64,000 nucleotides of DNA, from assembly GCF_011745625.1 (NCBI RefSeq), contig NW_027191456.1:496001-560000 (forward strand). The letters are read 5' to 3'. The position numbers were made by a program, and so were the translations under genes. Positions 44,725 through 64,000 of this stretch are shown here, piece after piece (positions within the stretch are counted from its first letter, which is position 1; every line of letters begins with the position of its first letter). Below the pieces are notes generated by a model. That model saw only the letters and a list, made by a program, of their open reading frames with translations. It searched no databases and was not told where the DNA came from. The DNA is from Cladosporium halotolerans (lineage: Eukaryota).

Positions 44725-44907
44725 ATGTTCGGCTTCAGCCTCTACCAGAGTGCGTGCCTCTACGCCAGCGTGACGGCCTTCTCCGCCACCTGGATCGCTC
44801 TTGCGCTGCCCATCCAGCACGGCAAGGCTGGTCCGTTCAACTACCACCGCGCTATCAGGCAGGGCCGCCGTATCCCATGGCGCCGTATTCCTGGTATGAA
44901 GATCTAG
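44725..44907 (+). CDS. Putative 60-aa microprotein with a hydrophobic N-half and cationic C-half
   Basis: TATAA at 44566, long CT-rich leader, CAAAATG Kozak context, mostly C/G-ending codons. MFGFSLYQSACLYASVTAFSATWIALALPIQHGKAGPFNYHRAIRQGRRIPWRRIPGMKI. Confidence 0.5.
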   Translation: MFGFSLYQSACLYASVTAFSATWIALALPIQHGKAGPFNYHRAIRQGRRIPWRRIPGMKI

Positions 44908-47028
44908 ATGCCGCGCGGCATCGCCACCGACCGTGTCAGCGGTGGTAGTCTCGCTGTCGCAAGATGGCCGAGGCTTCACTCAAGGCGGGGTGTCTGACAC
45001 CTTTCCCTCCTCGCCTTCTAAGCGCAACGTAGCGATCATCCGCGGACGCTCTGCGCTACGACCGATTCCTGCATGCTTCGTCGCTCTCTTCAAAGCAACC
45101 GACGGGCAGCTTTCGCAAATATGCTGATCACCATGGATCGACGCCATTCACTAGTGCAGTCGAAGCATCTCTGGCACCTTTCGCTTGCAGCGTTCAACCA
45201 TACAAGTAATACATCGAGCACCCACGCAGCACCTCTAACATCCACCTGGGACTCACCTTGAACCTGATTGCTCTTTTCACGGCGGAACATCTTCCACCGC
45301 ATTCGCTTGCACACGGTGTTGTGCCCGAGCCAACCTAGCCTTTGCGGCTTGCCTTAGCACGCCGACTCCCGGGCTCTCGCATTAGCTGCATCGCCAGCTT
45401 GTGCATGCACTCACTCGAGCCTCCAAGCATCACGATCACGGTGTTCATCTTTCCTCGACTGGCTTTCTGGTTCAAGTTCTTGGTTCGCCTCGCCACCTGC
45501 GCTCTTAGCTGCTCGCGGTCACCTGTACACAAAGACGTGCCTCTCGGCCGTCCATGTCGATATTCATGCAGAATGATTTAATGAAATGAAGTTCAAACCA
45601 TCTTCTCCGTCGTCCTTTCCGCGTTGGTGATGAAGTTTCGATGGAGTGAAGTTCATCTTCGCCTTAGACAGGACCCACAGTTGCCCTGAAAGACGGGAAG
45701 TCCGTTCGCCCCTAGCGTGCGCCTTGCGACGGTGTCGCGTGCTTCTTGTGATGATGGGCATCTTGAAGAAACACACTCGCTCGCACTGTACATTTGTCGC
45801 CATGTTGCCTTCTCCGCGTGCTCAGCTCTCATGCTGATGACCATTTGTACTTCATAACATTTACACCACTTGCGCTACATACCGCAATGGCTCTTAGCAT
45901 CCCGCCGACAGCCGTTTCTAGCAGCCAAAACCTCTCCCTTAGCCATCCCACAGCAAATACACGAAGGTGTTTCTCCTCCCAAACCCAGCCCAAACTCAGC
46001 CCTCGCAGCGGATTCGCCACCCAAGCTCGCTTCGCCGGATGTAACTAGGTATCGCCACTCTACTGGCTCGCGAAAGGGTTCGGGTGTCGCGGTGTGCGCA
46101 CCGGAAAGTGGCTGGCTGCGCCCGGTGCTCATCTTCCCCGCTCTCAGGATCGGGGGGCGCAAATGGATCAGCGGCCTGGGCGAATTGCTCGCTTCGCGGA
46201 CCTTTGTTTTCGCTGGCGCCTCCGAAGGGGCTTGGGCGGAAGGGGCATAGTCAGGTACAAGTACTTGTGTGGCAGCGGCACGGCTTCCGTTTGCCTTGGT
46301 TGGCGCTATATTGGGAGAGTCCTGGTGTTGGCCAATGCTTCTAGCAATCAGGTAGCGATGCAGCGTACGAACTTCTCATGATCTTGGGAGCTCTGAAAAC
46401 GCTTCATGTTGGACGAGTCAAGTGCTGTGTCATCTGTTCGTTTGCTGAGAAACATAGCAATTCCTCAGCCCGGGCGCAGAAAATATGAGGCTGCGACGAG
46501 GCTTTGGAGAGACGGTGCCTGGGTACGTTTGGCGCCGGGATCATGGCTATACAGCTTTCGTCAGGTCAAGGAACAGTCATATATATGACCTTCTTTGCGC
46601 AGCCTGTCGAAAGAATATGAATGCTGGCGACATTATTGAAAATGGCGTATTTACTGTATGCAAATAGCCCATTTGCTGGGAGGTGGAAGTCACGTGCTTC
46701 TTAGGCAAGCCGAAGCACGCTTCCAAAGCGTGGCGGATGGTGCTGTAAGTCAATTTTGCACGTGCTCTGCTAGTTGCAATTGACAAAATTGACGACTTCG
46801 TGCACAGCCCGTTGGTATTACCTGCCCGTGAATATCATCGTTGACGGGATGACCGCGGAGAGGTAGCAGCACGCTGAAGAGCGGGCTTTGCGGGGAGTTC
46901 CAGCCTAGCAACGGCGCCAAAACAAGCCCCAAAACAAAACTTGAGACAGCTTCGCGCACAAACCTCCAATTGATGAAGCGCATGCGCCTGACACGCTCAT
47001 CAATCGCGCGCGACGAACACCACACAAC

Positions 47029-49152
47029 ATGGAGTCACCATCGATACAGATCACACAGCCTATCGAGGACAGCGCATTCGACGTCGACGGCCCACCTTCG
47101 TCGCCCTTCCAGAGCGAGGTCGACGCCAGCAGCCGCAGTCCCAGTAAACAATACAGGCCGTCTCTGAGCAGCGTTGCGTTGGAGTCCATCGACGAGGATG
47201 CCGCAGCGCAACCAAAAGCCGAGTCGCCTGACAAGGCATCCGTGATCGATTTCACGGACTTCATGGACGACAAAGAGAACGTACCGCAAGAGGAGGCCAC
47301 TGCGACAAAGATTAGCATATCACCGAAGAAGACGGAAAGTCCGGGGTCAGTCAAGACGACCAGATCTTCGAAGTCGCCTGCAAAATCAGTGGTCGAGGAA
47401 AGCATTATGGAGCAGCGGAGAGGCAGCGCGGACTCAGATCGCATGCCGCCTCCGCCCTCAATCCGCAAGACACCGAAGAAAACACCTCTCCAGGCCCTGC
47501 GTAGCGGCGAAAGCCCAACACCACGCACAGCCACGCGCGGTAAATCTTTCGAACGAGCCAGTCCGACTCCACGCAGGACACCTTCGGGATTCCAGGCTGG
47601 TCTGGACCTTCGGGCTTCTACCTTCCAAGGCGGCGATGTTACCAACGTTGACGACACATGCTTCAGCACCTTCTCCGAGATCCCCGAAATGACCATCTTC
47701 GCAAAACTCGGCCAGAGCCCCACGAAGCGCGGCGACATGACGCGCACGCCGGGCCGCGATACCGCACCCACACCTGCGACCTCTCGCAAGCGACAGTCCA
47801 GTTCAAGGTCGCCGTCTCCCACTCCGCGCCGACGTAGAACGCCAGACAAGGTTTCGGACGACACGACGAACTTGCTCCTCGACTTCACACAACAGATCGA
47901 AGGCATCTCTCGGCCAAACGCCTCCGTTTCGCCCAGCAAGACCGAGCCAAATCTTCTCCGCCATCTGAACAGCCAGCGCTCGCCTCATAAGTCGAGGCAC
48001 AGCATTGCAACGCCAGCGAAGCAGAGCAACCTTCTCAACTTGCTTGATTTCGAGCTCCCGCCTGCGCCTACGCCGCGCTCTATTCCGACTATCACCGTCA
48101 GAGAGCTGGAGACTCTGAAGTCTTCGTACCTATCGCAGATCTCAAGCCTCAAAGCAACTCTCAGCGGTCGCGAAGCGGAGGTCGAGAGTTTGAAGCGCGC
48201 GGTCAATGATGCTGAGAGGCGCGTTGGTGAGGCACAAGAGGAGTTGCGGGAAGAGAAGGACGCTCGGGTACACGCCGAGCAAGAGAAGGCTGGCTGGGAG
48301 AAGCGAGGGCAGGAAGTGGAGTTGGTCTTGAAGAGCGTGAAAGAGGAGGTCATCAAAGGCGAGGTGGAGAAAGAGGAGCTCGTTCGCAAAGTCGAGGATA
48401 CAGAGCGCAGGATCGAGGCCGCAGAGGCCAGAGCCGTCAAGGCGGAAGAGCGCTTTGCTGATGCGCTTGCTGCGCGCGCTGATCCCGGCGATGGCAGCAC
48501 ATCCGCCACGGAGGAGCAGGTCCAGAAACTTGTGACAGCGCAAATTGACTCGAAGATCGAGGCCGTCAGCCGAGAGCTGCACGCTGTGTACAAGGAGAAG
48601 CACGAGCGGAAGGTGGCGACATTGAAGAAGAGCTACGAGGCAAGAGGCGAGAAGCGATGCGCTGAGCTGCAGAACCGTTTGGACGCAATGCAGAAAGAGA
48701 ACGAGGAGCTGCACGCGTCCAAGGACGCGACATTCTCGGGCCCCGTCACTGGCATCAGCAGCGAAGAGACCGCGGCCATGAAAGCCGAGATGGAGGAGCA
48801 GAAGGCGCACCTCGCCCGTCTCGAGAACGAGATCCGCACATCTCAGCAGCAACAGGCACAGCTGGTGCACGATCTTGAGAAGGAGCGCATTGAGAAGGGT
48901 GATCTGGTGGCCGCTGTCGACGAGATGCTTGCTTTGCAGTCTGAGGCAGGCCCCTCGCAGACACCAGGCGCGATGAGCGTGGTGGAGGATTTCAGGAAGA
49001 GCATCTCCAAGCCTTCAGGCCTCAAGCCTCCCACAGCCGGAGAGAGTAGGATCGGACGGGGTGTGCCGACCCCATCAAGGGGTGGCAGTGGCAAGAGCAG
49101 GATGTTGGCGAACATTGAGAGAATGGGCCGGACCACCAGCCAAGGGGAGTAA
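47029..49152 (+). CDS. Coiled-coil spindle/kinetochore protein with a fungal TACC (Slk19/Alp7-like) domain
   Basis: 707-aa intronless ORF. S/T-P-rich disordered N-half, long coiled coil, and IEAVSRELHAVYKEKHERKVATLKKSYE motif. Confidence 0.72.
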   Translation: MESPSIQITQPIEDSAFDVDGPPSSPFQSEVDASSRSPSKQYRPSLSSVALESIDEDAAAQPKAESPDKASVIDFTDFMDDKENVPQEEATATKISISPKKTESPGSVKTTRSSKSPAKSVVEESIMEQRRGSADSDRMPPPPSIRKTPKKTPLQALRSGESPTPRTATRGKSFERASPTPRRTPSGFQAGLDLRASTFQGGDVTNVDDTCFSTFSEIPEMTIFAKLGQSPTKRGDMTRTPGRDTAPTPATSRKRQSSSRSPSPTPRRRRTPDKVSDDTTNLLLDFTQQIEGISRPNASVSPSKTEPNLLRHLNSQRSPHKSRHSIATPAKQSNLLNLLDFELPPAPTPRSIPTITVRELETLKSSYLSQISSLKATLSGREAEVESLKRAVNDAERRVGEAQEELREEKDARVHAEQEKAGWEKRGQEVELVLKSVKEEVIKGEVEKEELVRKVEDTERRIEAAEARAVKAEERFADALAARADPGDGSTSATEEQVQKLVTAQIDSKIEAVSRELHAVYKEKHERKVATLKKSYEARGEKRCAELQNRLDAMQKENEELHASKDATFSGPVTGISSEETAAMKAEMEEQKAHLARLENEIRTSQQQQAQLVHDLEKERIEKGDLVAAVDEMLALQSEAGPSQTPGAMSVVEDFRKSISKPSGLKPPTAGESRIGRGVPTPSRGGSGKSRMLANIERMGRTTSQGE

Positions 49153-49545
49153 GCGGTGGATCTTTCAAATCATTCTCTTCATTCGTTACGCTGTTGTAGG
49201 AGTATTCGTAAGGTCATGGCAGGGATACACGGATGGCGCTGAGGGCTGTTTTGAAGGATTTCGTAGTCTGGGTCAAGGAGCACCATATAGCGGCTCGCTT
49301 TCGTATCTGTTCGTGAATCAGCCTGATTACAGCACTCTGATCGTTGACGGCAAAATTAATTGATTTCATCCATCTTGCCATCACATCGCCAAAGAGTTGC
49401 AAGTAAGGATGTACAACCATGCGCGAGAATCTGCCGAGGATCTGCCGCCGATTTGCGGAGCGCGAATCTCAAACCCCCGAGACGAATGTACGGCACGCGA
49501 GAGAACATCGGATGGGCACATTTCTGCCGACGACCACATCACATA

Positions 49546-51036
49546 ATGCCGCGCCTTCCCATATCAGAGCAGGCCCTGCGCCTCGCTCTCACCCGACCAT
49601 CGACATTCGCGCAATCGAATTACGTCTGCCGGACATGCATTCGACAATACCACCCCACGCCGGTCCTCCGCGCCGAACTGCCTTTCTGGAAGCGCCTTCA
49701 GCACTCGATCTTCGGTTCGCCTGAGCAGAAGGTTGCGACGGAGAAGCGCGAAGAGGCACACCAGAAGCACATCCAGGAGCTGGCTGACAAGGGCGGCACG
49801 GAGATGCAGCCGTATACCGACAATGAGGGACGGAAGTGGCAGATTGCGGCAGTGGTGGATCCCAGCATCAACAAGCAATACGTGCAGGCGCAGAGATGGG
49901 ACGGTCTGCAGTGGATAGGTACCAAGGAGTGGGTTGCGCTCAACAATGATGGCAAAGAGGCTTATGTCGGGTAAGTGGACATGAAAGATCAAAGCTCTGG
50001 ATATGCGCACGGCAAGGGAATTGAAGGGCTGACAGAGAGCGCGCAGGTTCAACCCGAGGAGGAAGCTGGATCTCACCAACGCGCAGTGGAATCGTTTGCT
50101 CCACCATGTGGCTGTGGAGGTCTTAACCCTTGCCCAGGCAGGCAGAGATGTTAATGCCGTACACCTTGAGCGACCGCTCAACGTTGAGGAATGGATGCGT
50201 TCAGCTCGTGTGCAAATCAAGGAAACAAATGGTGTCATCGAGCTCCAATTCCCCACGGAGGACACTCAAGAATTGATCGTCAACGCAGTGCCCCAGAGTC
50301 TGGCTGAGGAAATCATGATCGCCGCGAAGCAAGCTGAGGAAGCGGCTGAGGCGGCAGCAGAGGCTGAGAAGGCTGCCGCAGCAGTAGAGGAGGCTGCTCG
50401 CGCTGATGCGGAAGCCAAGGGAATTCCATATGAGCCCGCAGAAGCCCCCCTCGAGAAAGTGGAAGAAGAGGCGGAAGCAGAGGCAGAAGCAGAGGCCGAG
50501 GAAGAAGTCGAAGCACCTTTCGTCGACAGAAGAAGCGCGAAGGAAATCAGTGCCGCGGAGAAGCTGTACATGCGCCAAATCAGGGATGCTGTGCGAAGGA
50601 GCGCATCTCCTGTCAACAATGAGTGGCTGCGGACCTCGCTGGCGGCCCCCGCTGTCAAACTTGCTGTAAGTGAAGAGATGCGGGCATTTGGAATTTATGA
50701 TCATAATATTGACCTTTGCAGATTCTCAAGCGCGTCACCCAGCTAACTGGTCACCGCCTACCCGATCCTGTCATGACATCCGCCACTTCGATGTCAGACC
50801 TTTACCTCGCATTCAAGATCAAGCCTCAACCCAAGAAGCTCGCAGACGAGAGGCGCATGCACAATCTCAACCTTGACGTCCCCAACATTACTGTGCACCC
50901 TGTGAGGCAGACTCCCATTCACAAGGACAGAGAGGTCGGCAGATGGAAGGTGATTGAACAGGAGCTTATCAACAAGGGTCTGCCCATCACCGGCAGCAGA
51001 TATCAGCATGCAAAGACTACTAGCCCCATCTTTTAA
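49546..51036 (+). CDS. Mitochondrial large ribosomal subunit protein mL50-like; two introns
   Basis: Mitochondrial-type presequence (YVCRTCIRQYH), WDGLQWIG, VKLA|ILKRVTQLTGHRLPD, KPQPKKLA, DREVGRWKVIEQEL..GLP. Confidence 0.78.
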
Positions 51037-51487
51037 AAGCACTGCGGGAACATCTAGATGCATTCTGGCCGTTTTGGAAGGCACAGCCACGGCAGGCTTG
51101 GAGGATGTTGAGGACCATGTAGTGTCGCTTGCCACTGAAACTCATGGCGAGCGTCAGGCGAGTGAGGGCTGTCAGATGCTAGACATGTCGCTCACATGTA
51201 TCACCAATTGTACGTTCACGGTCTGTGTAACATGTTTTTCACTAACAATATGTATTCACCAAAATTTGCTTCGAAGTTTCTATTTGCATCCGTCAGCCTT
51301 CACCGTAGGTATCAACAAACAGCGCATTTCGTGACTAACACGTTGTTACGGACAACAAACCTGTTGATCACCACTCAACCCACTCGTGCCAAACTCCATC
51401 AAATCCACTGGCCGCGACAGTCGAAACTATTCAAAGCGCATTCCTATACGACAGCAGCTCACTCGTGAACCGACTACTCACGCGAAC

Positions 51488-52051
51488 ATGCTGGCCATCC
51501 TTCTGGTCGCTTCTATGGCCATGCTGGCGCTCGCGACGCCCCAAGAGTACCAAGTCACGCGCCCAGGCTCACTCAAACCGATCACCATACCTCTTCTGCA
51601 ACCGCCGTATGTCAAAACCCCAGGCCCTTTGGCGAAAAGAACCGACATGCCAACGGCTACATATGCACTGGCGAAGTCAAGCCCGCTCGTCGCAAACACG
51701 TCAACGACCACTCTGGACCCGGTGACGGTGACCATCACACTTGAAGCAACCACATTTTGCACGGCTCTGCACAACGGCACCGAAGTCCCAAGTGCTACAT
51801 TCTCTAGTGGGCAGACACCGACTACGACAATGGGAGACGCGATGCCCGGGTGCATGTCTGTCTGCGTTGAGCCCAATGAGAATGGAGAGTGCGATGTGAT
51901 TGCTGGTTGTGTGGGAGGGAGTTCGACCGAAAGCCAGAGTTGCCAACAATCGGAGGGAAAGGGGACCAAGGTGGCTGGAGATTTCTCAGAAACACTATTT
52001 GTCTTTCTGGGGCTGATAATTCTGGGTCCAGTCGCGTTTAAGCTTTGGTGA
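51488..52051 (+). CDS. Small Thr-rich secreted protein with a C-terminal hydrophobic tail (GPI- or membrane-anchored)
   Basis: Signal peptide MLAILLVASMAMLALA, KR site, Thr-rich stretch, Cys cluster C-MSV-C..EC..GC..C, terminal LFVFLGLIILGPVAFKLW. Confidence 0.62.
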   Translation: MLAILLVASMAMLALATPQEYQVTRPGSLKPITIPLLQPPYVKTPGPLAKRTDMPTATYALAKSSPLVANTSTTTLDPVTVTITLEATTFCTALHNGTEVPSATFSSGQTPTTTMGDAMPGCMSVCVEPNENGECDVIAGCVGGSSTESQSCQQSEGKGTKVAGDFSETLFVFLGLIILGPVAFKLW

Positions 52052-52653
52052 CGGGACTGGGAATAGCTGTGCAACCAGTGATCTTATGAGCCGCCAAGTA
52101 GTTGCCTAGAAGCAAAGCAGGGAGCTGGCTCTTCCCTTCATCAGAGATGATTGCTCAACGACACCATGGGAAGCCATAAGTAGCAGAATCACAAATCAGA
52201 TTTGAAAGAACAAATGCGAAAGGAACGGTGATTTGTTTCATACCAGATTGGTGACCATGAAGCTGGGCGTGGCGGACATGGCTTAGCCGGAGCCTGTAGC
52301 CGAGAGTAGCACCGATATTGGTGTTTGCCACTTGAAATTATCCTTCGTGAACCCCACGATGTAGCATCTCGCATCGCTGCTTTGTCGGCGTAGGATGATA
52401 GCTTCAGCCTCCTCACTCCCGCCTCAAGCGATCGTGCCGGACCAGAACGTCGTCTGAGCCATGGCCTCACCAAAAGCGCGAGTCGTTCTATCCTCACGAC
52501 TGCCAGTGCTCGGATAAAGGCCCCGACAGATCAATGGCTCATCCTCAAACGGTTCTGACGACCTTCTTCTGTGCCCATTGTCCTGTCTGCCAGCATCCCA
52601 GATTTCGCATTTAGGGTTCCATCCAAATCTCGATTTCTCTATTCTCCAGCTCT

Positions 52654-53055
52654 TCATCCGCCGCCATGCCTCACAGCATACCGCTCCTGAATACCCTTCA
52701 ACATCTCCTCCTTCTTTGCCTTCATCGCTCGTTCCCTGTGTCCCCAGTACCAGTAGCTCAAAGGCGCAGCGCCTGCAAGCAGACCAAGGAAGATCAACAC
52801 AACAGCGTTGGAATCACCACCCTTAGGACCATGGTTACTGAGCGCCGGATGCGAGACTGATGAAGGATGCCTCTCCGCTGGGGTTGCTGCAGGCTGCTGT
52901 GTTTGTGGTGGTTGCGCCGTCCCGTTCGATTGCGGTACCGTAGATTGGTGGCGTCTGGAAAGATGAATTGTTGAAGTCAGAGTAGGTGGTGCTTCGCGTG
53001 CGCGCAGTGATCGTCGCAAGGTGCTCAAGACCAAATTTCGAGCTGTTGGAGACAT
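52654..53055 (-). CDS. Small single-pass protein with a probable mitochondrial presequence
   Basis: Arg/Ser/Leu-rich N-terminus ending RRHQS, TM AVVLIFLGLLAGAAPLSYWYW, then a charged helix HRERAMKAKKEEML. Confidence 0.62.
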   Translation of the reverse strand: MSPTARNLVLSTLRRSLRAREAPPTLTSTIHLSRRHQSTVPQSNGTAQPPQTQQPAATPAERHPSSVSHPALSNHGPKGGDSNAVVLIFLGLLAGAAPLSYWYWGHRERAMKAKKEEMLKGIQERYAVRHGGG

Positions 53056-53443
53056 CGCGGCTAATGTAAAGGTTCGATGGCAGGCGCGTTGGCTATATTG
53101 TGGAAGACGAATGCGAAAGTCGAGTACATGACCTAGCGGTGCTAGTTCTAGATGCCAAAGCCGGACCGAACGCTTGGCGGGTCGCCTTTCAGGGACCCAT
53201 GCTTTCCATTGTTTGTAGAACTACCTTAACGTCCTGGACATTTATTCTCAAGAATTTCAGAAACTTTCAACCCCTATTCAAATATCTGGACTGACAGCTG
53301 ATCCTTACGTAGAAAGCTTCGGGTTTGCGCGTTTGCCGATGTACAGAAGTTGACCTCAGGAAGACTCGTCTTTGAGCACGCGCTACCCGATTACAACAGA
53401 TGACGACCTGAGCGGGAGGCCGGCACCTTCGCATCAGCTCGTC

Positions 53444-54867
53444 TTATTCACCATTGACCGCGTGGTAAAGCCCTTTATCTGGAGGCGGACAACCATACCA
53501 GTCCAGTCCGAGCTTGTCTTCCGGATCTGGGTCCGGCATCTGATAGAAACCATCATATCTCCACCACCTTCGCTTCTCCCAGGTCTCTTCAACGGGTTGC
53601 ATACCCTCATCTTGCAACCGAGACGCGGTGTCAGCAATCTCTTGCCACACTCGAATGATGTTCTCCCCAGCAACTTGAGCCAGCTGTGCCTCGGTTGCTC
53701 CACGTTCAAGGATCGCCTGGAGCAAGCTTGGGAATTTTGAACAATCTTCCAGCCCTGGAATGACTGACGCTATTCCTATGAAACCAATGAGTGTCTGAGC
53801 AATCTGAAGCCAATCATGGCACTTACCATCGAAGTCGGATCCCAAACCAACGTGATCCCATCCGATACGGCCCGCAATATAGAACAGATGGTCTAACAGC
53901 ATGTCGATTGTGGCTTCGGAACGTCGAGGACTGAGATGCTCTGGCACAAATGTAACCATTACGATACCCCTGTTTGCCGGAACGAGATCGAGGACTTCGT
54001 CTGGTACGTTTCTCGGGCAATTGAAAACAGCCTGCGCGTTGCTGTGTGAGAAGATCACCGGAGCAGCTGTGCAAGCCAACGCCTGTTTAGCGGCATCCAC
54101 AGACACATGAGAAAGATCGACCATCATTCCTGTAATGTGTTAGTGCGTCTGACCTTTTGTGTACTGAAGTATTCTGTTCATGGCTTCCGACAGGCACTGA
54201 ACTAACCGATGCGATTCATCTCCTTTACTGCCGCCAGACCAAGTTTCGATAGTCCTCCATGGACGGGCCCCACTTTGGAAGTCGATGAGTCGGCAAATGC
54301 GTTATTCTCAACATGTGTCATGGTACACTGCAATGTCAGCGAGGATCCTCTGAGCGTTTGACAAACCACACATACATATCTGACGCCGAGTTGATGATAA
54401 GCTCGAATGACGCTGATAGAGTTTCCTGCCTGATGGAGGCCCTCAAGCCCAATGGAACATGCGATCTTGTTCGATTGATATGTCGGTCTAACCTCTTCAG
54501 GATCGTAGATGAGCTTGAAATCTTTCGGATACGACTTGATCATTCTGATCGAGAGATCGATCTGCTCAAGCGCGTCTCGACACATGTCGTTGTACTGTGG
54601 CAACTCGAAGTCTTCCGATCCGCGCAGATGCGGTACACAAATAGACCAGAACTGCAGACCAACCGCGCCCTTTCTCAGCCTGGGTAAATCGGTCATCCCC
54701 CTTTGGAACCCTTTTTCGAGATCAAACTTGGGGTTGTCATGAATCTTGCCCTGGAAGCAGCAACGTGGCTGCTGGGGGAGATCGTTGTGGCCATCGGCGA
54801 GCGGAGTATTGAGCAAAACTCGCTTGACTCGTTCGTCAATGTCCAATGTTTGATATAGTTGCGCCAT
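53444..54867 (-). CDS. Membrane/renal dipeptidase family (peptidase M19, GliJ-like), apparently cytosolic; three introns
   Basis: [63 protein letters not shown]. No signal peptide or TM segment. Confidence 0.92.
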
Positions 54868-55577
54868 GTCGATCTCGATGTTCTTGGAACAGCTCGTCGA
54901 GATGACAATCACGGCAGTGAGATCGAATGATGAAATGAGGTGGGTGGGAGGATTGAACTGTGGTCGCGCATACACATAAAAGCATCGATTGCACGGGTAC
55001 TTTACATAGTATCGTACAGCGGAGCACTACTACTATCCTCGGATACAATGAAGTGATTTCCATCGGTCACTATCAGGCCGGCATTCTGGACTTGCCGTTA
55101 TCTCTCAGTTGCCCGTCAGCCGGAAAACCAGCCCCGCGCACCTCCACAACTTATCTTGGAAAAGTCTGTGGCATTACACAGCTATTCCCTGGACAGCGTC
55201 AAAGTCGCGCGCTCTAGTAGAAACGATAGCAGCTCCGAATTGTCTGTAGACCGCGCAGGGGCTCCTCGAACGTGAACAGTATCATCTTCGACCAAATTTT
55301 CTCAAGCCACCGTACTACTATCCATTCTAGACAGTCCAAAGACAGTTTCCAAGAGAGCGTCCTGGTTCGTAGAGCTACAAACTTTGGATCGACTTTCCCG
55401 GACCTTCGGAATACGTTTCCCGCGCCTGAGAAAGATAGAACGCAGCATTGTGTAACCTCGCTCACGTTACCGTCATGATGACCTTCCATTTATAGGCCGC
55501 GTCCCAAGTTCCTAAGATCATGGAATCTCTTGAATCGCAATCATTAAATCGATCTTTCCGTTTCGCACGCATACACC
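54868..55577. promoter_or_regulatory. Divergent promoter (dipeptidase / dialkylglycine decarboxylase) with clustered GATA sites and a CGG-containing motif
   Basis: HGATAR at 55070, 55098, 55151, 55224 and 55433. CGGAAAACC at 55121-55129. Confidence 0.5.
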
Positions 55578-56945
55578 ATGTCTACCACAGCAACCATCAC
55601 AGACACTACGCCAAAGCTCGATGTCGTCGACACGTTCTGGCCCAGAGCTAACAGATACCTTATGTATACTGGTGTGCCGGCTTCTCCGGTCATAATTACA
55701 AAGGCGCAAGGAACCAAGCTCCAAGATGCTAGCGGGAGACAAATACTGGACTTCACCTCCGGCCAGATGAGCTCTCTGCTTGGCCACTCTCATCCAGAAA
55801 TTGTGGAAGTTGTGTCCAAGTACGTAGGAGAGCTCGATCACCTCATCAGTAACATGATTACCGAGCCCGTCGTGGAGCTGGCGGAAAGACTTGCCCGTCT
55901 CCTTCCTGCGCCTTTGGAGAAGTCCTTCTTCCTCAACACTGGCTCGGAAAGCACTGAGGCTGCCATCAAGATGGCGAAGCTTCATACCGGCAAGTTCGAG
56001 ATCGTAGCTTTCTCCGCAAGCTACCACGGTCTCACCCAAGGCTCAGGATCCGCAACCTATTCTGCGGGCCGCAAGAATGGCGGTCCAACAATGCCGGGTC
56101 AGCTGGCGTTCCCTGCGCCGTATGGTTATCGATCCCCCTTCAAGAAAGCCGACGGATCCTACGATTGGGAAACAGAGCTTGAATTCGGATGGTCTATGAT
56201 CGACAGGCAAAGTGTGGGCTCTCTGGCTGCATTCATCATGGAGCCCATACTTTCAACCGGTGGTATTCTTGAGCCTCCCAAAGGCTACCTTCCCCGAATG
56301 GCAGCAGAGTGCAAGAAGCGAGGCATGCTTCTGATCATGGACGAGGCGCAGACCGGCGTCGGTCGTACGGGCGAGATGTTTGCCTTCGAAAATGAAGGAG
56401 TTGTGCCCGACATCCTAGCGCTGTCGAAGACCCTTGGATGCGGTCTTCCTCTGGCTTCGGTCACGACAACAGCGGAGATCGAAAACGGTTGCAAAGAGGC
56501 AGGGTTTCTTTGGCTTACCACTCATCTCAATGATCCTCTCACTGCCGCAGTTGGAGCCAAGGTTTTGGAGATCGTCGAGCGCGACAATTATTGCCAGAAG
56601 GCTGCCGATCGGGGTAGACAACTGCGCGCAGGCCTCGAGAAGCTCCAGAATAAATATTGGTGCATCGGTGATATTCGCGGCAGGGGCCTTTTGCAAGGCA
56701 TTGAGATCATTGCCGACAGCGCGACAAAGGCGCCAGGCTCGGATCTTGGTCAAGCTGTCTCTGAGGCGGCCATGAGGAACGGCCTCTCCTGCAACATTGT
56801 CAATCTTCCGGGTATGGGTGGGGTGTTTAGATTGGCGCCTCCGGTCACGGTCACTGAGGAAGAGATCGAGGAAGGGCTTCGCATCTTGGACGAGTCATTC
56901 GCGCAAGTTCTGACAAAGTCAAAACTCATGACCGCAGCTGCTTAG
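55578..56945 (+). CDS. dgdA: 2,2-dialkylglycine decarboxylase (pyruvate), class III PLP aminotransferase; intronless
   Basis: ILDFTSGQMS..LGH.HPEIV, ATYSAGRK, IDRQS.G.LAAFI.EPILS.GGI, DEAQTGVGRTG, LSKTLG (PLP Lys), TTH..DPL, NIV.LPGMGGVFR.APP. These match Burkholderia cepacia DgdA motifs as recalled. Confidence 0.9.
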   Translation: MSTTATITDTTPKLDVVDTFWPRANRYLMYTGVPASPVIITKAQGTKLQDASGRQILDFTSGQMSSLLGHSHPEIVEVVSKYVGELDHLISNMITEPVVELAERLARLLPAPLEKSFFLNTGSESTEAAIKMAKLHTGKFEIVAFSASYHGLTQGSGSATYSAGRKNGGPTMPGQLAFPAPYGYRSPFKKADGSYDWETELEFGWSMIDRQSVGSLAAFIMEPILSTGGILEPPKGYLPRMAAECKKRGMLLIMDEAQTGVGRTGEMFAFENEGVVPDILALSKTLGCGLPLASVTTTAEIENGCKEAGFLWLTTHLNDPLTAAVGAKVLEIVERDNYCQKAADRGRQLRAGLEKLQNKYWCIGDIRGRGLLQGIEIIADSATKAPGSDLGQAVSEAAMRNGLSCNIVNLPGMGGVFRLAPPVTVTEEEIEEGLRILDESFAQVLTKSKLMTAAA

Positions 56946-57574
56946 CTATTCCATAGGTCTTAGATCGGCGGCAACAATTCTGGGAACCGTTTCTCCTTAC
57001 GATTGCCACAAGCACGTAGTAGTACCTCTTTCAATTTTGATTCCATACTTGCTATGCCTTCTAACATCGTATCGCAGCCGTTCGACGCTGTTCATCGCAG
57101 ATTTCTTGTTCATCGCCGTATGTGAGCAGCAGATCATATCATCTTGGATTACTTATGTCACGTTGAAGCTCGAATGAATCATTGAAAATCGGGCCCGGTG
57201 GACCAAAGGGCAAAGTGGAAGATGTTAGCCCGGACCAGAGACCCAATTCATTTGGGCGCCGTCCCATGATTCAGAGCTTCAGTTCTCGGTATATCCCGAC
57301 ACCTTGACGTTGGCACGGACGTTTCTCCAATGAGGCGAATGAGGTAGCAATTTCAAGTCGAGGCAATGATGAAATCGTTTAGAGTATCGCTTCACGAGTT
57401 TCAGATGAGCTACAAGTCATGAACCGCATTCGAAATTGAGGAAGGACTTGTGCTATGAACGCCGCTGACGAACTAATCTCGGAAAGACTGCGAAGTCACG
57501 CCGCTAGCCAACTCCTGTAAGAGAATATTGCACTCCAGGTGACCGGGCTTCCAGAATACTCCGGTACTCACAGC

Positions 57575-59230
57575 TCAATATACATACTAAAGCGTGGTTA
57601 GGTCGACGAGTTCTAGCAAAGTCTATTTCGTTTCAGATTCGGTGCGAACATACCTTGAAGTTGGGATTGTCGAGATCAGTCTCGTCGTTCAGACCACGAG
57701 TTTGCCCGTCACGCAGGTCATGTGTCTTATTTGCATTTGCCGCGGCCCTTCTGCGGTTTCGGTTCCAGAGCAGAGCCCAGGTTGAAAGGATACAAACGAC
57801 CTGAATGGCGATGCATGTCAACATCATACCGACTCCAAGCTCATATCGGGGCGCTTGACTGCTGATGAAGAAGAAGGGGCCAATGAAGTTTCCCAGACAG
57901 TAGCCGATGAGTAATATTGCGGCGCTCGTCGCCTTCTTGGTGTGACCAGCAGTGTTCGCCGTGATGACAGACATCGAAAGTGACCATGTCGCAGTGTAGC
58001 TGAACGTGATCCAAAGACAGACAAGACGTCCGTAAGGGTTTGTCTGTGGAAGGAGCCACATTCCGACAACACCGGCCAGTGTCGGTAGCAAGCAAATGAG
58101 CATGATAGCAAATCGCGCATTCTCAAAGGAAGAAGCGACGAAGCAGGCGGCTGTGCAAACCACGAACTGTACTCCACCAGAAGGCATTTGGATTAGGGTC
58201 GTTCGTAGCTTCGAAAATCCCAGCCCACGGATGATCAGGCCTTGAAAAGTCGTCAGCCCTCCATTGGGCGAATTGCTGGCCACTGCGAACAAGAACATAA
58301 GCCAACTTTTCGGATCTGTCAGTGCTTCCCAGAATTGGCTGGCTTTCCAGTGTTTGTTTTCCACGCCTGTCTCGTTCTCCTTGATGCGCTCTAGCACACA
58401 CTCTTTCTCGAATTCAGTGAGGAATTTGGCGGAGGCCGGGTTGTCCGGTAGTAAGACTAGTACGACAACACCCCAGGCAATGGTAATGGTGCCCCAGACA
58501 ATGAAGGTGTAGCGCCAACTCGGTAGGGCAGCGTCGATGTGTCCAATGCCGAAGCTTGCGATTCCGGCGATGATGTATCCGATGCCTGCGCATCCGATCC
58601 AGATGCCGATTCGCAATGGTTGCTCGATGCGTTTGTACCACATAGTGAATATGACCATGGTGACTGGTTGAATTGAAGCTTCGAAGACCCCGAGGAAGAA
58701 TCTTGCAGCAGCCAATCCCGAGAAGTCATGCGCTGCAGCATGGCACGTCAGAACGATTCCCCAGGTGATCACCTGTGATCAGTCAGTCTCGAGCTCGATG
58801 TGGGAAGCGGGAAATTCGTCTCACCGAAGCTCCAAGGAATTTCCCCAGCGGCAGTTTTTGGAGGAGTACCGACGTTGGCCATTCCCAAATCATGTATCCT
58901 AAGTAGAATATGGCACCGAGCCAGGAGAATTCCGAGCCCGTCAAGTTTGTGTCCTCTCTGACTCCAAATACTGCAGCGTAAGACAGCGTGGTCTTATCGA
59001 TCGATTGCAAAGCGTAAGTGAAACATCTGAGAATCGTCAGCAACACCGTGTATGGTCTGGCTTTGAAATGGTCCTCACAATATTGGCATCAACCAACAGT
59101 CGATCTTGAACTTCAGCTTTTTGTCGTCGATCTCCGCCACCTCTCCGACATGGCATTGTTCGATGCCCATTTCTTTGGAGAGGTCTTTGCCATCTGGCTT
59201 CTTCGTCGTAAGGTCCAGCTCAGCAGCCAT
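57575..59230 (-). CDS. MFS transporter of the Dal5 allantoate/dipeptide permease family; three introns
   Basis: KIDCWLMP, IDKTTLSYAA.FG, FSWLG.IFYLGY, RFFLG.FEA, WYKR.EQP.R, LPDNP..AKFL, N.TG..NK, NTAGHTKK, QAPRY, DETDL.NPNFK|YVY*. Confidence 0.92.
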
Positions 59231-59807
59231 TTCATCGAGAATGTCTGATGTGTTGGGTACAAGTGTCACACAAATGTTACCACTGTCCTCGAGATCTACT
59301 TATACACCATTCCAAGTGTTGATAAGACGGGGCCGCAAACCTACCGGGTCCGGAGGGCTGACGGAAAACCGCTCTGCGCGAGCGCCATCATAACGAAAAG
59401 ATGGTTGGCTGCTACGGGAATAGACCAAGATAGCGATAAGGTCATGTGTACATACCCTTCTGCTGAACATGGCAGATTGGACAAGATATCACTAGAACCC
59501 TGGCGATGAGTACCTGAGGGGTAATGAGATAGCGCCGAAAGAGTTTACCGTACGGTAAGTCAGGTTTCGGGAAAATGCCACCGCCTCGGGCTTGGCGGGC
59601 GGCGAATGCTGATCTCCGAATCAATCCGCCTTCGACAGTCTTATCAGGGCGCTATTGACATGGCGAGAGTCTCGGCCTTCGCCCGACCATTTGCCTATCA
59701 CGGAGAAAACCGTACGCAAATCTCATGAATATGCATTAATCGTGCTGTTCGCAAGCTAGCGGTTGCCGCTCGCGGGACTTGAGTTCCCCGATGCCATCAG
59801 TTAGACC
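59231..59807. promoter_or_regulatory. Divergent promoter (permease / Zn2Cys6 regulator) with clustered GATA sites and CGG-Nx-CCG elements
   Basis: HGATAR at 59320, 59428, 59434, 59527, 59641 and 59695. CGGAAAACCG at 59362-59371 and CGGAGAAAACCG at 59701-59712. Confidence 0.5.
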
Positions 59808-61972
59808 ATGGAGCAGCATGAGGCCGGCGAGCTTCCCGGCAGTCGTCCATACCGCTCTCACAAACTTCCCGCCTGTACTGTTTGCCGACAGCGCAAGGGA
59901 CGCTGTCATGTGGACGACCCAACGCTTCCATGTCGATATTGCCGCCGAAAGTCTCTAACGTGCGACCATGGCCTCAATTCGAAGAAACTCATTCGTCGAC
60001 ACCAGACTCAACAGCACGGCTCACAACACCAAAGTCCCATAACGCAAGCACCCACGAACTCTCCGAGAAGACATGATTCGTCTCTGGTGCAGATGTCGTT
60101 CGGAGAGATGCAGACTCTGGACGATTCGTCTCCAATCATGGTCAATCCAACCATGGCAGAGGACCTGGACGTACTAGAGCGCCACCTGGCTCCACGAAAT
60201 GTCGCGGAGGTGGCTGAAGCACAACCGTATGTTCGTATATCAAATACTCTTGATGAGTCGATTGTGTACCGTACAGTACCGCGGATACGCAAAGGTCTTC
60301 AGTCTACGTCGAGTCCAGGCGTAAGGCAGCGTGAGATCATGGAAAATGTTCTCGGAGAACTTCACGTCGCTGTCATCCAATTGTAAGGCGGTTTAGTCTT
60401 CTGCGACGAACTAGCATGGTGACGTATCGCAGGTACTTCGACGTGGTCAACACGCATTTTCCGATCTTGGACGAGTCTTCGTTCTGGAAACTTTGGCGCA
60501 AAGATCCTAAGCGTATATCCTCGACTCTGATGTGCGATATTTATGCAGTCGCTCTGCCGTATTGGGAAAATTCTGAAGTATTACGCGACCGTCGCCGCCC
60601 CGACGTGCAATTTGCTTGGAACCAGGCAGTTCTTGCCTTGAGAGATGACTTCATGGCGCCTTCGTTGACAACAGTGCATGCCGCTCTCCTAGATCTGCTC
60701 GGAAGACCTATATACTCGGTCACTGGTAACATCATCACCGCAGGTCGCACCGTCAGTCTCGCACATAGTCATGGTCTTCATCGTGACCCGAGCACATGGA
60801 GGGCCAGCAATGGCGAGATAAGCCTACGCATACGAGTGTGGTGGGCGATCCTCATTCATGACCACTGGTATGAGCCAGATATTGTGTTTGCTTTGGGAAC
60901 ATGCACTGACGTTTATCAGGTCCAGTTTATCCCACGGAACGCCTCCTAATGTGGTGAACGACAACTATAATGTGCCACTGCCAAGTCTCGCATCTTTCGT
61001 TGCAAGAGGTGCTTCAGACGCCCGCAAGCTCGCGTCAGCTTCATTCTTTCAGCTTTGCCGCTTGACCAGCATCCTTGGGGGCATCTTGCCGCTTGTATAC
61101 TCGTTAAAGCTCAATTACAAAGAGGCTTGGAAAAGCATGCGACGCATTGAGTGCGCCCTTGACGAATGGGAAGACACGCTTTCTGACTCCTTTGGTGAAG
61201 ATAACGGCTTCAGTGGTCATGAATCTGTTCTTCGCCGATCCAGCAGCTTGTTTTTCTGCTACCTGACTCTCAAGCTCATGTTGAAAAGACTGGCATTCAA
61301 AGTGAGTGGACCGCTTGGTTTCCCTTTTGCGAGCGCTTATAGTTTTTAGATCACATTGCGCGACGAAACTCAGACGCAACCAGAAATGAAGCAGTATCGT
61401 TTCGCCGAGATGCAGCAATCTGCCATCGCTGTAATAGATTTCGTGGCATCGCTGCAGCGAGAAGAATTTCAACAGTTCTGGCTCCCCTGTAAGTTACTGG
61501 CAGCATACCTAACCATTTCCATTGCCCGACAGCGGCCCTGACTATCGCAGATGCTGCTCACTTGCTCGTTTCCGCATGCACAACACTTCTCCGATGCGTG
61601 GTTGAATCGCCCCACGTCGAGACCAAAAGGGCGTCAGTCAAAAGTCTCTCAAGCATGCTCAGCAACCTGCGGGTCGCTCGAGAGCTTTACAACTGGGATT
61701 TGGCCGTGCTTTGCATCGAGACCTGTGGACAGTCCATTGAGCGGATCGCGGCTGCCAACCAGAACCCAGCGCAGCGAGATGTGGCCAACTCATCTCGGAC
61801 TGAATCGCGCGGAGAAGGCCTTATTGAGCCGGCGGAAGCTGCTTTGCAGACAACTTTGGGCGCTCAGCCTCCAGGAGACGATGCGGAGCTCCTCTTCAGT
61901 CTTGATCTTCCTTGGGATCATTTGTGGGATGACATTGCCCAGCCGTGGCAGCCGATTGTTGATTACACTTGA
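59808..61972 (+). CDS. Zn(II)2Cys6 transcription factor with a fungal-specific middle homology domain; four introns
   Basis: ACTVCRQRKGRC..PCRYC..LTC zinc cluster, YFDVVNTHFPILD, AHSHGLHRDP, RIRVWWAILIHDHW, acidic C-terminal W/D/P tail. Confidence 0.92.
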
Positions 61973-62438
61973 ATGGACGTCGGCAGCATGCATTGAAGAA
62001 GCCACCATAAGCCTCGGAAGACATCCTGTGATCTAGTCACCACGAATCAGCCTTCAGGGACTTTCCAGCGTCGTATCAGAGGCACCACAATGACGTTCCC
62101 CGCAGAAGCTCCGACAGTGCAGGGCCAGATACCAGTGCATCAATTAAGTGGGGGATTATCATAGTGCTCGACGTCACTTCGCTACACTCATTGCCGTTTG
62201 TATTGTGATGCTACCTAAGTATCACACGTTTCACGGCAGCGATGCATCAGCTGCATGAGCTTCAGCCAGATGATCTCTTTTGAAGGAAGGTTGTCCGAGC
62301 GGACATTGCTTACTTACACGAGGCCTGATATGCCGAGGATCTCTCCTCTCTTACTCTTCCTCGACCATAGTATATCATGTAAACATTGTACATTAGCTTT
62401 GCTTGCCTTGCCGTTTCCAAGAGCTATTGTCATCTAGC

Positions 62439-63977
62439 ATGGCTCCTTCTAGGGTCGAGCCATCTACTTCGGATGCCCGCCAACAACCTCGCTTCCTTAT
62501 CATAGGCGCCGGATCTCGTGGCAACTCGTACGCCAGAGCACTCCAGGATTCTAAACTAGGAGTTGTTGCAGCAGTAGCTGATCCAATTGCATTTAAGCGC
62601 AAGCAACTAGGCCGCAGATATATTTGGTCCTCTTCTGCACCTGAGGATGGCCAGGAGTTTGCAGGATGGAAAGAATATGTCGCGTACGAGCATCAAAGGC
62701 GTGCTGACGAGGCTGCCGGCATCTCCACGCCACCCAAGATTGACGCTGCTTTCATCTGTGTTCTAGATCATCAGCATGTAGAAGTCGCCTCTGCCCTTGG
62801 GCCCTTGGGCCTTCACATCATGTGCGAAAAGCCACTGGCGACGACGTTAAGTGACTGTCTCCGAATCCAGCAGTCGATCGAATCAGGCCCAAAGTCGATC
62901 TTCGCGATAGGTCACGTTCTTCGGTACAGCCCTCACAACATGCTACTCCGGCATCTCGTGCGGGAGAAGAAAGTCATCGGTGACATCCTGTCTCTCGAGC
63001 ACATCGAGCCGGTCGGCTATTGGCACTTTGCCCATTCGTACGTCCGCGGCAACTGGAGGAAAGAGTCTATCTCGGCACCGAGCTTGATGACGAAAAGCTG
63101 CCATGACATCGATTTCATCCTTTGGATGCTCTGCTCGCCACTGGAAGCCAAAGATCGAACGCCACATTTGCCGGCGACGATATCTTCTGTAGGCTCGTTG
63201 AAGCAGTTCAAACGGTCAAGGAAGCCAAAGGAGGCGGGTGAAGCAGAGAACTGCACAGAATGCTCGATCAAATCCAGCTGCATATACTCCGCGCTTCGAA
63301 TCTACCGCGACAGGCACCTAGCCAAAGGCAACGCGAAGTGGCCTGTGGACATCGTCAATCCCGAGATTGACGCGCTGTTGGCTCAGGGTGAAACAGAGGC
63401 AGCAGATAAAGAGCTCTTGGCTTCGTTGGCTTCTAACTACGGCAAAGACACACCAGTCCAAGACATCGAGTCGAGACCCTGGTACGGGCGATGCGTGTTC
63501 GAAAGCGACAACGACGTCGTCGACGACCAGTTCGTCACATTCGAATGGAAAGACGGTCCAAACGGTCAGGCGAAGACTGCAAACTTCCACATGATAGCGC
63601 AGACGCTGGCTCAGTGCGAGCGGAGGGGCCGGATCTACGGCACGGCTGGAGAAATCTATTATGACAGCAAGAGCATCACGATTCACGATTTTACGAATGA
63701 CGAAACGAAGGTGGTTCATCCCGAAGTACCAAAGAACTCGCATCATGGAGGCGGAGACGACGGTCTCACTGCCCAGTTCGCGAAGGCTGTGGCTGCGGTC
63801 AAAATGGGCGCAATGAGCGTTGATGAGTCGCAGACGGCTTATGTTGGCTGCACTCTGGAGGAAGTCGTAAGATCACATGCAGCGGTCTTTGCTGCTGAGG
63901 AAGCCAGGCGGGGCGGGAAGGTAGTTGATTGGGGGGAATGGTGGGAAGAGCACGTGAAGCATGGCCTTCGTTCGTGA
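62439..63977 (+). CDS. Gfo/Idh/MocA family NAD(P)-dependent oxidoreductase (StrI-like)
   Basis: IIGAGSRG Rossmann motif, HIMCEKPLA, GHVLRYSP, HFAHSYVRGNWR, TKSCHDID, GRCVFESDNDVVD, HGGGD. Confidence 0.88.
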   Translation: MAPSRVEPSTSDARQQPRFLIIGAGSRGNSYARALQDSKLGVVAAVADPIAFKRKQLGRRYIWSSSAPEDGQEFAGWKEYVAYEHQRRADEAAGISTPPKIDAAFICVLDHQHVEVASALGPLGLHIMCEKPLATTLSDCLRIQQSIESGPKSIFAIGHVLRYSPHNMLLRHLVREKKVIGDILSLEHIEPVGYWHFAHSYVRGNWRKESISAPSLMTKSCHDIDFILWMLCSPLEAKDRTPHLPATISSVGSLKQFKRSRKPKEAGEAENCTECSIKSSCIYSALRIYRDRHLAKGNAKWPVDIVNPEIDALLAQGETEAADKELLASLASNYGKDTPVQDIESRPWYGRCVFESDNDVVDDQFVTFEWKDGPNGQAKTANFHMIAQTLAQCERRGRIYGTAGEIYYDSKSITIHDFTNDETKVVHPEVPKNSHHGGGDDGLTAQFAKAVAAVKMGAMSVDESQTAYVGCTLEEVVRSHAAVFAAEEARRGGKVVDWGEWWEEHVKHGLRS

Positions 63978-64000
63978 AACCTCCTCATGCAAAGATGTTT

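Follow-up and report, generated by a model that had tools for sequence, protein, structure and literature searches.

The α,α-dialkyl amino acids 2-aminoisobutyrate (Aib) and isovaline (Iva) give peptaibiotics, and modern peptide drugs, their resistance to proteases. A subtelomeric gene cluster dealing with these residues, DGD1-DGD2-AAP, has been described in Saccharomyces and Zygosaccharomyces (Tapia et al. 2023, PMC10169451). According to that report, DGD1, which encodes a dialkylglycine decarboxylase (DGD), confers growth on Aib, resistance to Aib and the formation of acetone; DGD2 encodes a Zn2Cys6, Cha4-related protein needed for Aib-dependent induction; and the third gene encodes an amino-acid permease. 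The genes were proposed to detoxify Aib released from peptaibols, and the relatives tested so far use Aib and isovaline (PMC10169451). A fungal DGD enzyme (Esaki et al. 1994) and a functional DGD1 in Mycosphaerella graminicola (Adachi et al. 2003) are cited in the same source. The present analysis concerns a 64,000-nt stretch of the Cladosporium halotolerans genome (contig NW_027191456.1, positions 496,001 to 560,000; hereafter the window), in which a DGD gene lies among genes for an M19 dipeptidase, a Dal5/ACS-type permease of the major facilitator superfamily (MFS) and a Zn2Cys6 transcription factor (TF) (Table 1). A sequence-only reading of the window knew of no described eukaryotic cluster of this kind, which the yeast cluster shows to be mistaken for the core of DGD, regulator and permease.

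As in yeast, the DGD gene of the window stands beside genes for a Zn2Cys6 regulator and a permease, a set that in yeast serves both the use of Aib and isovaline as nitrogen source and their detoxification (PMC10169451). The two loci differ in several respects. The yeast permease is an APC amino-acid permease, whereas that of the window appears to belong to the Dal5/ACS branch of the MFS; the window adds the M19 dipeptidase; and the DGD substrate pocket carries Y/L/T in the window in place of the W/M(V)/S of yeast-like enzymes. In addition, the window genes form two bidirectional pairs that carry the motif CGGRAAAS, whereas the cis-elements of yeast DGD1 were left by its authors for future work (PMC10169451). 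Judging by its title and the text that cites it, the M. graminicola study describes a single gene (Adachi et al. 2003, Curr Genet 43:358); this species is a Mycosphaerellales Dothideomycete, of the same broad group as the named relatives of the window, and its DGD1 is a likely orthologue. In Burkholderia cepacia, the dgdA-dgdR system combines an enzyme of the same family (520 bits) with a dedicated, divergently placed regulator, which is of LysR type rather than Zn2Cys6. The known core is DGD and its regulator, and these comparisons suggest that the cluster of the window is an extension of the smaller yeast one: where the yeast work concerned DGD and a regulator for free Aib, the locus in the window suggests an upstream arm for the uptake and hydrolysis of Aib dipeptides.

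Results

To define the locus, exon models were built from GT..AG sites and homology and then compared with RNA contigs. The gene models, Pfam matches and RNA confirm four adjacent genes in two head-to-head pairs, each with a shared upstream region, and the outer limits given in the sequence-only reading, 53444 and 61972, are exactly the two outer stop codons. Spliced RNA contigs of runs X2 and X3, which are identical to the window, span all four genes and include loose poly-T ends at 57385 and 57411, at the 3' end of the permease gene, the product of which ends in NFKYVY. Seven of the nine modelled introns are seen as RNA joints in X3, and three of those seven in X2. The permease intron 58773-58824 and the dipeptidase intron 54328-54375 appear as joints in X20 only, the RNA of a relative 90-99% alike to the window. 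Joints were also observed for the dipeptidase intron 54130-54206 (X3) and for the permease introns 57587-57653 (X2, X3) and 59027-59078 (X3, X20). All four TF introns were found as GT..AG joints, with the last acceptor placed by RNA at 61551 rather than 61533, which gives a protein of 650 residues. The TF transcript starts near 59650, and the permease transcript of the X20 relative extends to 59498. RNA contig depths are unable to rank the four genes; all four are real, intact and transcribed.

A metagenome scan with the DGD protein returned 154 relatives, of which 80 were kept and 15 are of fungal type (at least 78% identity). After removal of two duplicates (L008 of L007, L013 of L009) and of three loci that were too short (L010, L026, L068), ten distinct fungal DGD loci remained, and their neighbours were called by local tblastn of the window proteins. 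A TF homologue lies beside DGD in seven of these loci (L001-L004, L007, L009, L012): it is directly divergent from DGD in six and within 5 kb in the seventh (L009), compared with a distance of 2.9 kb in the window. The permease gene accompanies DGD in four loci (L001-L003, L009) and the dipeptidase gene in three (L001, L002, L009). Three gene orders are seen: dipeptidase(-), DGD(+), permease(-), TF(+) in the window; dipeptidase(-), permease(+), TF(-), DGD(+) in L001 and L002; and TF(-), permease(-), dipeptidase(+), DGD(+) in L009 and its duplicate L013. L009 encodes a DGD with 99.8% identity to the enzyme of the Leotiomycete Cadophora malorum. The linked set of four genes occurs in other Dothideomycete contigs as well as in this Cadophora-like Leotiomycete. 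Homology to the flanks of the cluster in the window (40000-53400 and 62000-64000) is absent from all 80 loci.

Named genomes extend this picture. In Elasticomyces elasticus, the cluster is linked within tags 004968 to 004971, where LTS10_004968 (DGD), LTS10_004970 (permease) and LTS10_004971 (dipeptidase) stand on one contig. The tags of the dipeptidase and permease genes follow directly on one another in three genomes, Neocucurbitaria sp. VM-36 (116660/116670), N. cava (006698/006699) and Zasmidium cellare (68202/68203). The same two genes lie on contigs of equal length, an indirect sign of linkage, in 13 more organisms with names: Periconia macrospinosa, Pseudocercospora fuligena (40-kb contig), Niveomyces insectorum, Pseudovirgaria hyperparasitica, Cadophora sp. 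DSE1049 (214-kb contig, which holds DGD too), Halenospora varia, Pleomassaria siparia, Fusarium oxysporum, Aspergillus keveii, A. varians, A. oleicola, A. unguis and A. terricola. Similar indirect signs place DGD with the permease in A. granulosus, A. californicus and Xylariales sp. PMI_506, and DGD with the dipeptidase in A. spectabilis (133 kb). As read from these sequences, the unit is composed of TF-DGD and dipeptidase-permease, two older modules found together in several lineages and separately in others. The TF-DGD pair appears to reach yeast-like loci, and the dipeptidase and permease genes appear as neighbours in many Pezizomycotina. Three arrangements, unrelated flanks and the linkage within four tags in Elasticomyces would be hard to obtain without selection for linkage.

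The shared upstream regions of the two gene pairs hold a common element. An unbiased k-mer count over 14 cluster promoters yielded CGG(G/A)AAA(C/G), or CGGRAAAS. The 64-kb window contains four matches, compared with 9.1 (standard deviation 3.0) expected from shuffled sequence, and all four lie in the two bidirectional promoters, which together measure 1,287 bp. In X20 the RNA contig for DGD begins at 55508, which puts the paired sites at 55393-55422 approximately 90-115 bp upstream of the transcript. Across the window and L001-L005, L009 and L012, 35 of 48 matches fall in cluster promoters, which make up 7.2 kb of the 187 kb in total; selection inflates the counts in the discovery set, and a fairer judgement comes from L005 and from the exclusivity across the window. 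In L005, which was outside the discovery set, all three matches lie within 270 bp upstream of DGD, and in three yeast-like loci 1/2, 2/4 and 1/2 of the matches fall in the TF-DGD spacer. The dipeptidase-permease promoters carry three matches each in L001 and L002 and one in L009. Zn2Cys6 factors read CGG half-sites, and the element often occurs as inverted pairs, such as CGGGAAAGTTTCCCG in L012, an arrangement that would fit such a factor. No CGGRAAAS was found upstream of DGD in L006, L007, L010 and L011, and CGG-Nx-CCG or CGG-Nx-CGG dyads with a fixed spacing of 0-15 showed no clear enrichment in the 14 cluster promoters. HGATAR reaches 8.5 sites per kb in the two window promoters and 2.0 per kb elsewhere in the window, a background that includes coding DNA. 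Nitrogen-catabolite control acts via AreA-type factors at GATA sites, and the HGATAR density would fit such control.

The decarboxylase is the most clearly assigned member of the cluster. Aminotran_3 matches 55578-56942 (E 3.8e-90), and the B. cepacia DGD structures 1d7r, 1dka and 1dgd match residues 18-442 with 520.7 bits (E 3.2e-155), compared with 231 bits for the next-best family, the caprolactam-racemase-like class-III enzymes. The earlier description of a DgdA-like pyridoxal 5'-phosphate (PLP) enzyme is thus strongly borne out. No NCBIfam model scored above its cutoff on this protein, and none of the models is DGD-specific. Active-site residues Q52, K272 (the PLP lysine) and R406 (bacterial numbering) are kept in the window protein and in 119 other listed homologues. 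The pocket residues W138, M141 and S215 are replaced by Y, L and T in the window protein, in all 119 other listed fungal homologues and in the ten fungal loci, and these positions are W, M or V, and S in the 16 bacterial and yeast-like loci examined. W138, M141 and S215 are reported to be the bacterial subsite residues and to be kept in yeast Dgd1 (PMC10169451). Because the Y/L/T changes are conservative and clade-wide and describe the pocket rather than the family, the protein was filed as belonging to a Pezizomycotina DGD clade, the substrate range of which is possibly shifted from that of the bacterial enzyme. The nearest named relatives (Acrodontium crateriforme, Elasticomyces elasticus and Cryoendolithus antarcticus) are 85-86% identical, which marks the source of the window as probably a Mycosphaerellales-like Dothideomycete, and fungal DGD proteins at least 80% identical occur across four classes of Pezizomycotina. 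The assignment as a DGD is solid at the level of sequence, and by analogy with the published relatives the predicted function is catabolism of Aib and isovaline (PMC10169451).

Three observations touch on other DGD genes. First, L006 (6747-8143 and 12048-13592) and L011 (6294-7708) show a second fungal context, in which an enzyme 78-81% identical to that of the window has a gene for a TRI12-type efflux MFS protein upstream. A P450 gene lies downstream of DGD in L006, and further out this context has an unrelated Zn_clus gene and an ankyrin protein and lacks a CGGRAAAS element; its DGD may be a paralogue with another role. Second, the protein P0115, 99.5% identical to the DGD of L009 (= L013), is filed at NCBI under a 'Deltaproteobacteria bacterium' metagenome-assembled genome (MAG), and the record appears to stem from fungal contigs that were sorted into a bacterial bin. 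Third, among the bacterial relatives, LysR genes adjoin dgdA in L039, L042 and L047 and lie within 3.5 kb in L055 and L059. Directly downstream of dgdA, two of 19 bacterial loci carry a gene for an S15 X-Pro dipeptidyl peptidase (L052:1821-3863 and L059:11324-13318), with an M13 peptidase gene also nearby in L059. Aib-Pro bonds are frequent in peptaibols, and the S15 peptidase may represent the bacterial equivalent of an arm for feeding on peptides.

In the dipeptidase gene, Peptidase_M19 matches both halves (E 1.6e-49 and 3.2e-33; profile positions 5-174 and 174-319 of 319). The motifs HND, GLEG, DLSH, FSHS and SDFDG align with those of Aspergillus fumigatus GliJ, the closest solved structure, which is followed by mammalian DPEP1/DPEP3; these motifs contain the ligands of the binuclear zinc centre (HxD, bridging E, two H, D). 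In the alignment the protein starts level with GliJ and with mature human DPEP1, and HND begins at residue 27. With only 26 residues before this motif, the dipeptidase is indeed signal-less, as had been read from the sequence. The C-terminus is a hydrophilic extension, and neither a signal peptide nor a glycosylphosphatidylinositol (GPI) anchor was recognized. These features point to a cytosolic M19 member like GliJ, with which the protein shares the M19 fold, the metal-ligand motifs and the lack of a signal peptide; DPEP1 shares the fold and motifs. In contrast to GliJ, the dipeptidase belongs to a separate orthogroup, and its conserved partner is a permease rather than a biosynthetic gene. 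The orthogroup comprises 69 listed sequence clusters with 51-91% identity to exon 1, after which identity drops to at most 46%, and every source-named member among them is fungal. No gene for a nonribosomal peptide synthetase (NRPS), glutathione S-transferase (GST) or gamma-glutamyl cyclotransferase was found among the 36 long open reading frames (ORFs) of window positions 1-53400, nor by Pfam in the flanks of L003-L007, L011 and L012 (those of L001, L002 and L009 were unscanned).

One detail of the dipeptidase transcript concerns the active site. A 51-nt segment, 53776-53826, has GTAAGT...TAG ends, is in frame and stop-free, and lies directly after the SDFDG metal-ligand motif. It is unspliced in all X2, X3 and X20 contigs, in some of which neighbouring introns are spliced; the dipeptidase transcript contigs are only partly spliced. 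The corresponding place is an out-of-frame gap of 49 nt in the homologues of L001 and L002, and the 17 residues are absent in that of L009. The segment is treated here as an intron that is often retained and whose frame is kept open. Keeping it gives a protein of 432 instead of 415 residues, with 17 extra residues beside the active site, and its retention could reflect regulated or leaky splicing. Three Colletotrichum/Aureobasidium models, P0134 (895 aa), P0145 (809 aa) and P0123 (669 aa), are about twice the normal dipeptidase length. P0134 (Colletotrichum), which represents 47 member sequences, has M19 and MFS domains together; such long models are either merged annotations of a divergent pair or true fusions.

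The permease exons on the minus strand match MFS_1 (E 1.5e-27), and the best-matching model, TIGR00893, reaches 157 bits on a single exon, below its cutoff of 395. By automatic annotation, the sources name its homologues 'ACS family allantoate permease-like', 'allantoate permease' or 'DAL5'. The likeness to yeast Dal5, a permease for allantoate, ureidosuccinate and dipeptides, is at family level, by these names and the TIGR00893 match. Members of the Dal5 family transport dipeptides; because the family carries many substrates, dipeptide transport by the cluster permease is one possibility. A scan of prokaryote genome contigs with a permease exon, aimed at fungal contigs in MAGs, gave no relative. 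The TF matches Zn_clus with 22.4 bits (cutoff 21) and Fungal_trans with E 1e-10. The TFs adjoining DGD in the yeast-like loci L075, L079 and L080 are 26-28% identical to it over approximately 500-600 aligned residues (E 1e-45 to 6e-52), that of L057 gives weaker, partial matches, and the unrelated Zn_clus genes of L006 and L011 do not match it at E 1e-5.

Discussion

The four genes of the window are probably one co-regulated functional unit. The view of the sequence-only reading that the genes belong together draws support from the linkage, the shared CGGRAAAS element and the transcription of all four genes. That the unit provides a route of uptake, hydrolysis and decarboxylation for Aib/Iva dipeptides, both nitrogen-catabolic and detoxifying, is a proposal for which we judge the chances about even. 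In this route, the Dal5-type permease would import a dipeptide-sized Aib/Iva fragment, and the cytosolic M19 zinc dipeptidase would free the dialkyl amino acid. The conserved partnership of the dipeptidase with a permease points to an imported substrate, and M19 enzymes tolerate D-configured or unusual C-terminal residues, as a quaternary residue would require. DGD would then convert the freed residue to acetone or butanone and CO2, with the amino group passing via pyridoxamine 5'-phosphate to pyruvate to give L-alanine. This chemistry is established for the family: it was demonstrated for yeast Dgd1 (PMC10169451) and, according to the work cited there, for the likely orthologue in M. graminicola. 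The Zn2Cys6 factor, as the presumed counterpart of Dgd2, would activate all four genes through CGGRAAAS half-sites, to which it is predicted to bind, and HGATAR sites would contribute general nitrogen control. The earlier suggestion that the fungus uses or disarms Aib peptides stands in part: a pathway in the cytosol can use fragments as food or detoxify them, whereas it cannot disarm an intact membrane-active, pore-forming peptide.

A number of results weigh against this proposal. On the side of linkage, L001-L003 have common flanks and were thus counted as one lineage; in L003 the dipeptidase gene is missing and its side is replaced by unrelated DNA; L004, L007 (Penicillium-like) and L012 have the TF-DGD pair only; L005 (Aureobasidium pullulans-like), L006 and L011 have DGD without a TF homologue; and DGD and the dipeptidase lie on separate contigs in Coleophoma cylindrospora, Aspergillus steynii and Neonectria ditissima. 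Co-occurrence across fungi, a check proposed in the sequence-only reading, shows the genes linked in three orders and at least three lineages, and the modules apart in other loci and genomes. In the 19 bacterial dgdA loci, a scan of 114 ORFs found no M19 gene and no pattern of a Dal5-type permease or peptide transporter. The CGGRAAAS element was counted in its own discovery promoters, with L005 and the yeast-like loci as the held-out cases. As to function, the pocket residues W138/M141/S215 of the bacterial DGD are Y/L/T in the window protein; GliJ, the closest solved M19 relative, acts on a Cys-Gly adduct rather than on Aib peptides; the Dal5 family also takes non-peptide anions and at least one amino acid; and the cluster contains no endopeptidase able to make Aib dipeptides from peptaibols. 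Dipeptide import by the permease, cleavage of Aib bonds by the dipeptidase and peptaibols as the source of the substrate are steps that we infer.

The main rival explanation, which we regard as rather unlikely, is that two independent nitrogen-scavenging modules adjoin in the window, TF-DGD for free Aib and isovaline and dipeptidase-permease for ordinary or Cys-Gly-type dipeptides, with general nitrogen regulation alone in common. The modules do occur apart in many fungi, including the separate contigs of the three genomes named above. Yeast takes up Aib via Gap1, and no effect of deleting the cluster permease is reported in the available part of PMC10169451. HGATAR is enriched in both window promoters, as general nitrogen regulation would have it, and GliJ and DPEP1 are the best PDB matches of the dipeptidase. 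GliJ and mammalian M19 enzymes act on Cys-Gly-type substrates. Independent modules would not readily explain, however, why CGGRAAAS occurs beyond the GATA sites in both window promoters and in the dipeptidase-permease promoters of L001, L002 and L009, nor why the modules are joined in three arrangements with unrelated flanks and lie within four tags in Elasticomyces.

A second alternative, which appears improbable, keeps the unit and changes its substrate to other unusual dipeptides, such as L-Xaa-D-Xaa from bacterial cell walls, peptides of D-amino acids or conjugates of cyclic dialkyl residues of the 1-aminocyclopropane-1-carboxylate (ACC) type. Once the M19 enzyme had freed the D- or quaternary amino acid, DGD would dispose of this residue through decarboxylation-dependent transamination. 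The structure matches of the dipeptidase include the bacterial M19 enzyme Sco3058 (PDB 3id7 series), and bacterial M19 enzymes such as this one prefer L-D dipeptides. DGD positions the leaving group by stereoelectronic control, and Sun, Zabinski and Toney reportedly saw slow decarboxylation of D-amino acids by DGD in 1998. The residues Y138/L141/T215, fixed in all listed Pezizomycotina DGD, would also be compatible with another substrate. Against this, fungi possess D-amino-acid oxidases for D-residues, no feature of the cluster suggests cell-wall fragments, and the DGD relatives tested use Aib and isovaline (PMC10169451).

The idea of a secondary-metabolite cluster, in which the dipeptidase trims an intermediate derived from glutathione, the role of GliJ in gliotoxin synthesis, has in its favour that GliJ is the best solved-structure match of both dipeptidase halves and that cytosolic M19 enzymes occur in epipolythiodioxopiperazine clusters, yet such a GliJ-like biosynthetic role is extremely improbable and was rejected, because no NRPS, GST or related gene was found among the long ORFs of window positions 1-53400 or in the scanned related flanks, the dipeptidase is conserved together with a permease, DGD and a TF rather than with biosynthetic enzymes, and the nearest biosynthetic gene, for a type III polyketide synthase (PKS), is 23 kb away.

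A wider reading can be considered, which is tentative and falls short of even likelihood: a dedicated route, widespread in Pezizomycotina, by which fragments of peptaibiotics serve as food or are detoxified, with a Dal5-type permease and a cytosolic M19 enzyme specialized for bonds next to α,α-dialkyl residues and tied to DGD by an Aib-sensing, Dgd2-like factor acting via CGGRAAAS. That would make the dipeptidase the first peptidase on record with Aib bonds, those that block proteolysis in peptide drugs, as its natural target. It is a candidate Aib-bond enzyme of possible biotechnological use, and CGGRAAAS is a candidate binding site for the regulator. A conserved regulon of this kind may shape the competition of fungi with peptaibol producers, for example Trichoderma biocontrol strains. 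Without the dipeptide link, the locus would be an ordinary, known catabolic gene pair beside a dipeptide-salvage pair.

The full-text library that was searched contained nothing that joins allantoate permease with dialkylglycine decarboxylase or with membrane dipeptidase, and dialkylglycine decarboxylase and dipeptidase occur together there only in unrelated papers. The dipeptidase-permease arm, the wide conservation of this pair, its recurrent joining to TF-DGD and the CGGRAAAS element look new, as they were not found there. In Pyricularia oryzae treated for 3 h with a trichogin analogue (PMC8551967, eight supplements), neither a dipeptidase nor a DGD gene is among the differentially expressed genes. 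Two 'allantoate permease' genes change in opposite directions in that study, and Pyricularia is absent among the dipeptidase matches; this transcriptome says nothing either way on the cluster.

Other features of the window

Table 1 Features of the window, with positions counted from its first nucleotide.
Feature	Position	Strand	Details
M19 dipeptidase gene	53444..54867	-	exons 54867-54376, 54327-54207, 54129-53827, 53775-53444; 415 aa; Pfam PF01244
DGD/DgdA orthologue (2,2-dialkylglycine decarboxylase, pyruvate)	55578..56945	+	single exon, 455 aa; Pfam Aminotran_3
Dal5/ACS-type MFS permease gene	57575..59230	-	exons 59230-59079, 59026-58825, 58772-57654, 57586-57575; 494 aa
Zn2Cys6 TF gene	59808..61972	+	exons 59808-60382, 60433-60867, 60920-61301, 61350-61488, 61551-61972; 650 aa
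Bidirectional upstream region, dipeptidase/DGD	54868..55577	.	710 bp
Bidirectional upstream region, permease/TF	59231..59807	.	577 bp
CGGRAAAS site, dipeptidase/DGD promoter	55121-55128	+	
CGGRAAAS site, dipeptidase/DGD promoter	55393-55400	-	
CGGRAAAS site, dipeptidase/DGD promoter	55415-55422	-	
CGGRAAAS site, permease/TF promoter	59362-59369	+	
Looser site, dipeptidase/DGD promoter	55554		CGGAAAG
Looser site, permease/TF promoter	59568		CGGGAAAA
HGATAR sites, dipeptidase/DGD promoter			five
HGATAR sites, permease/TF promoter			six
GFO/IDH/MocA oxidoreductase gene	62439-63977		rejected as cluster member
Type III PKS gene	29853-30632	+	chalcone/stilbene synthase N-terminal domain
MFS transporter gene near the PKS	24393-25310	+	
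Esterase/lipase gene near the PKS	31941-33407	+	
APC-family amino-acid permease gene	39115-40245	-	13 kb upstream of the cluster
Sugar transporter gene and adjoining AnmK-family kinase gene	416-1453 and 2637-3803	- and +	

The oxidoreductase gene downstream of the cluster was considered as a further member of the cluster and was set aside, its tblastn search giving no match in any of the 80 loci. The type III PKS gene, which has an MFS transporter gene and an esterase/lipase gene nearby, lies approximately 23 kb from the cluster and is unlinked to it in the related loci. An APC-family amino-acid permease gene is also present upstream of the cluster; an APC permease is part of the yeast DGD cluster. 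At the far end of the window, a sugar transporter gene stands beside a gene for a kinase of the AnmK family, presumably the family of fungal levoglucosan kinase, and the two may form a small pair for the utilization of anhydro-sugars.

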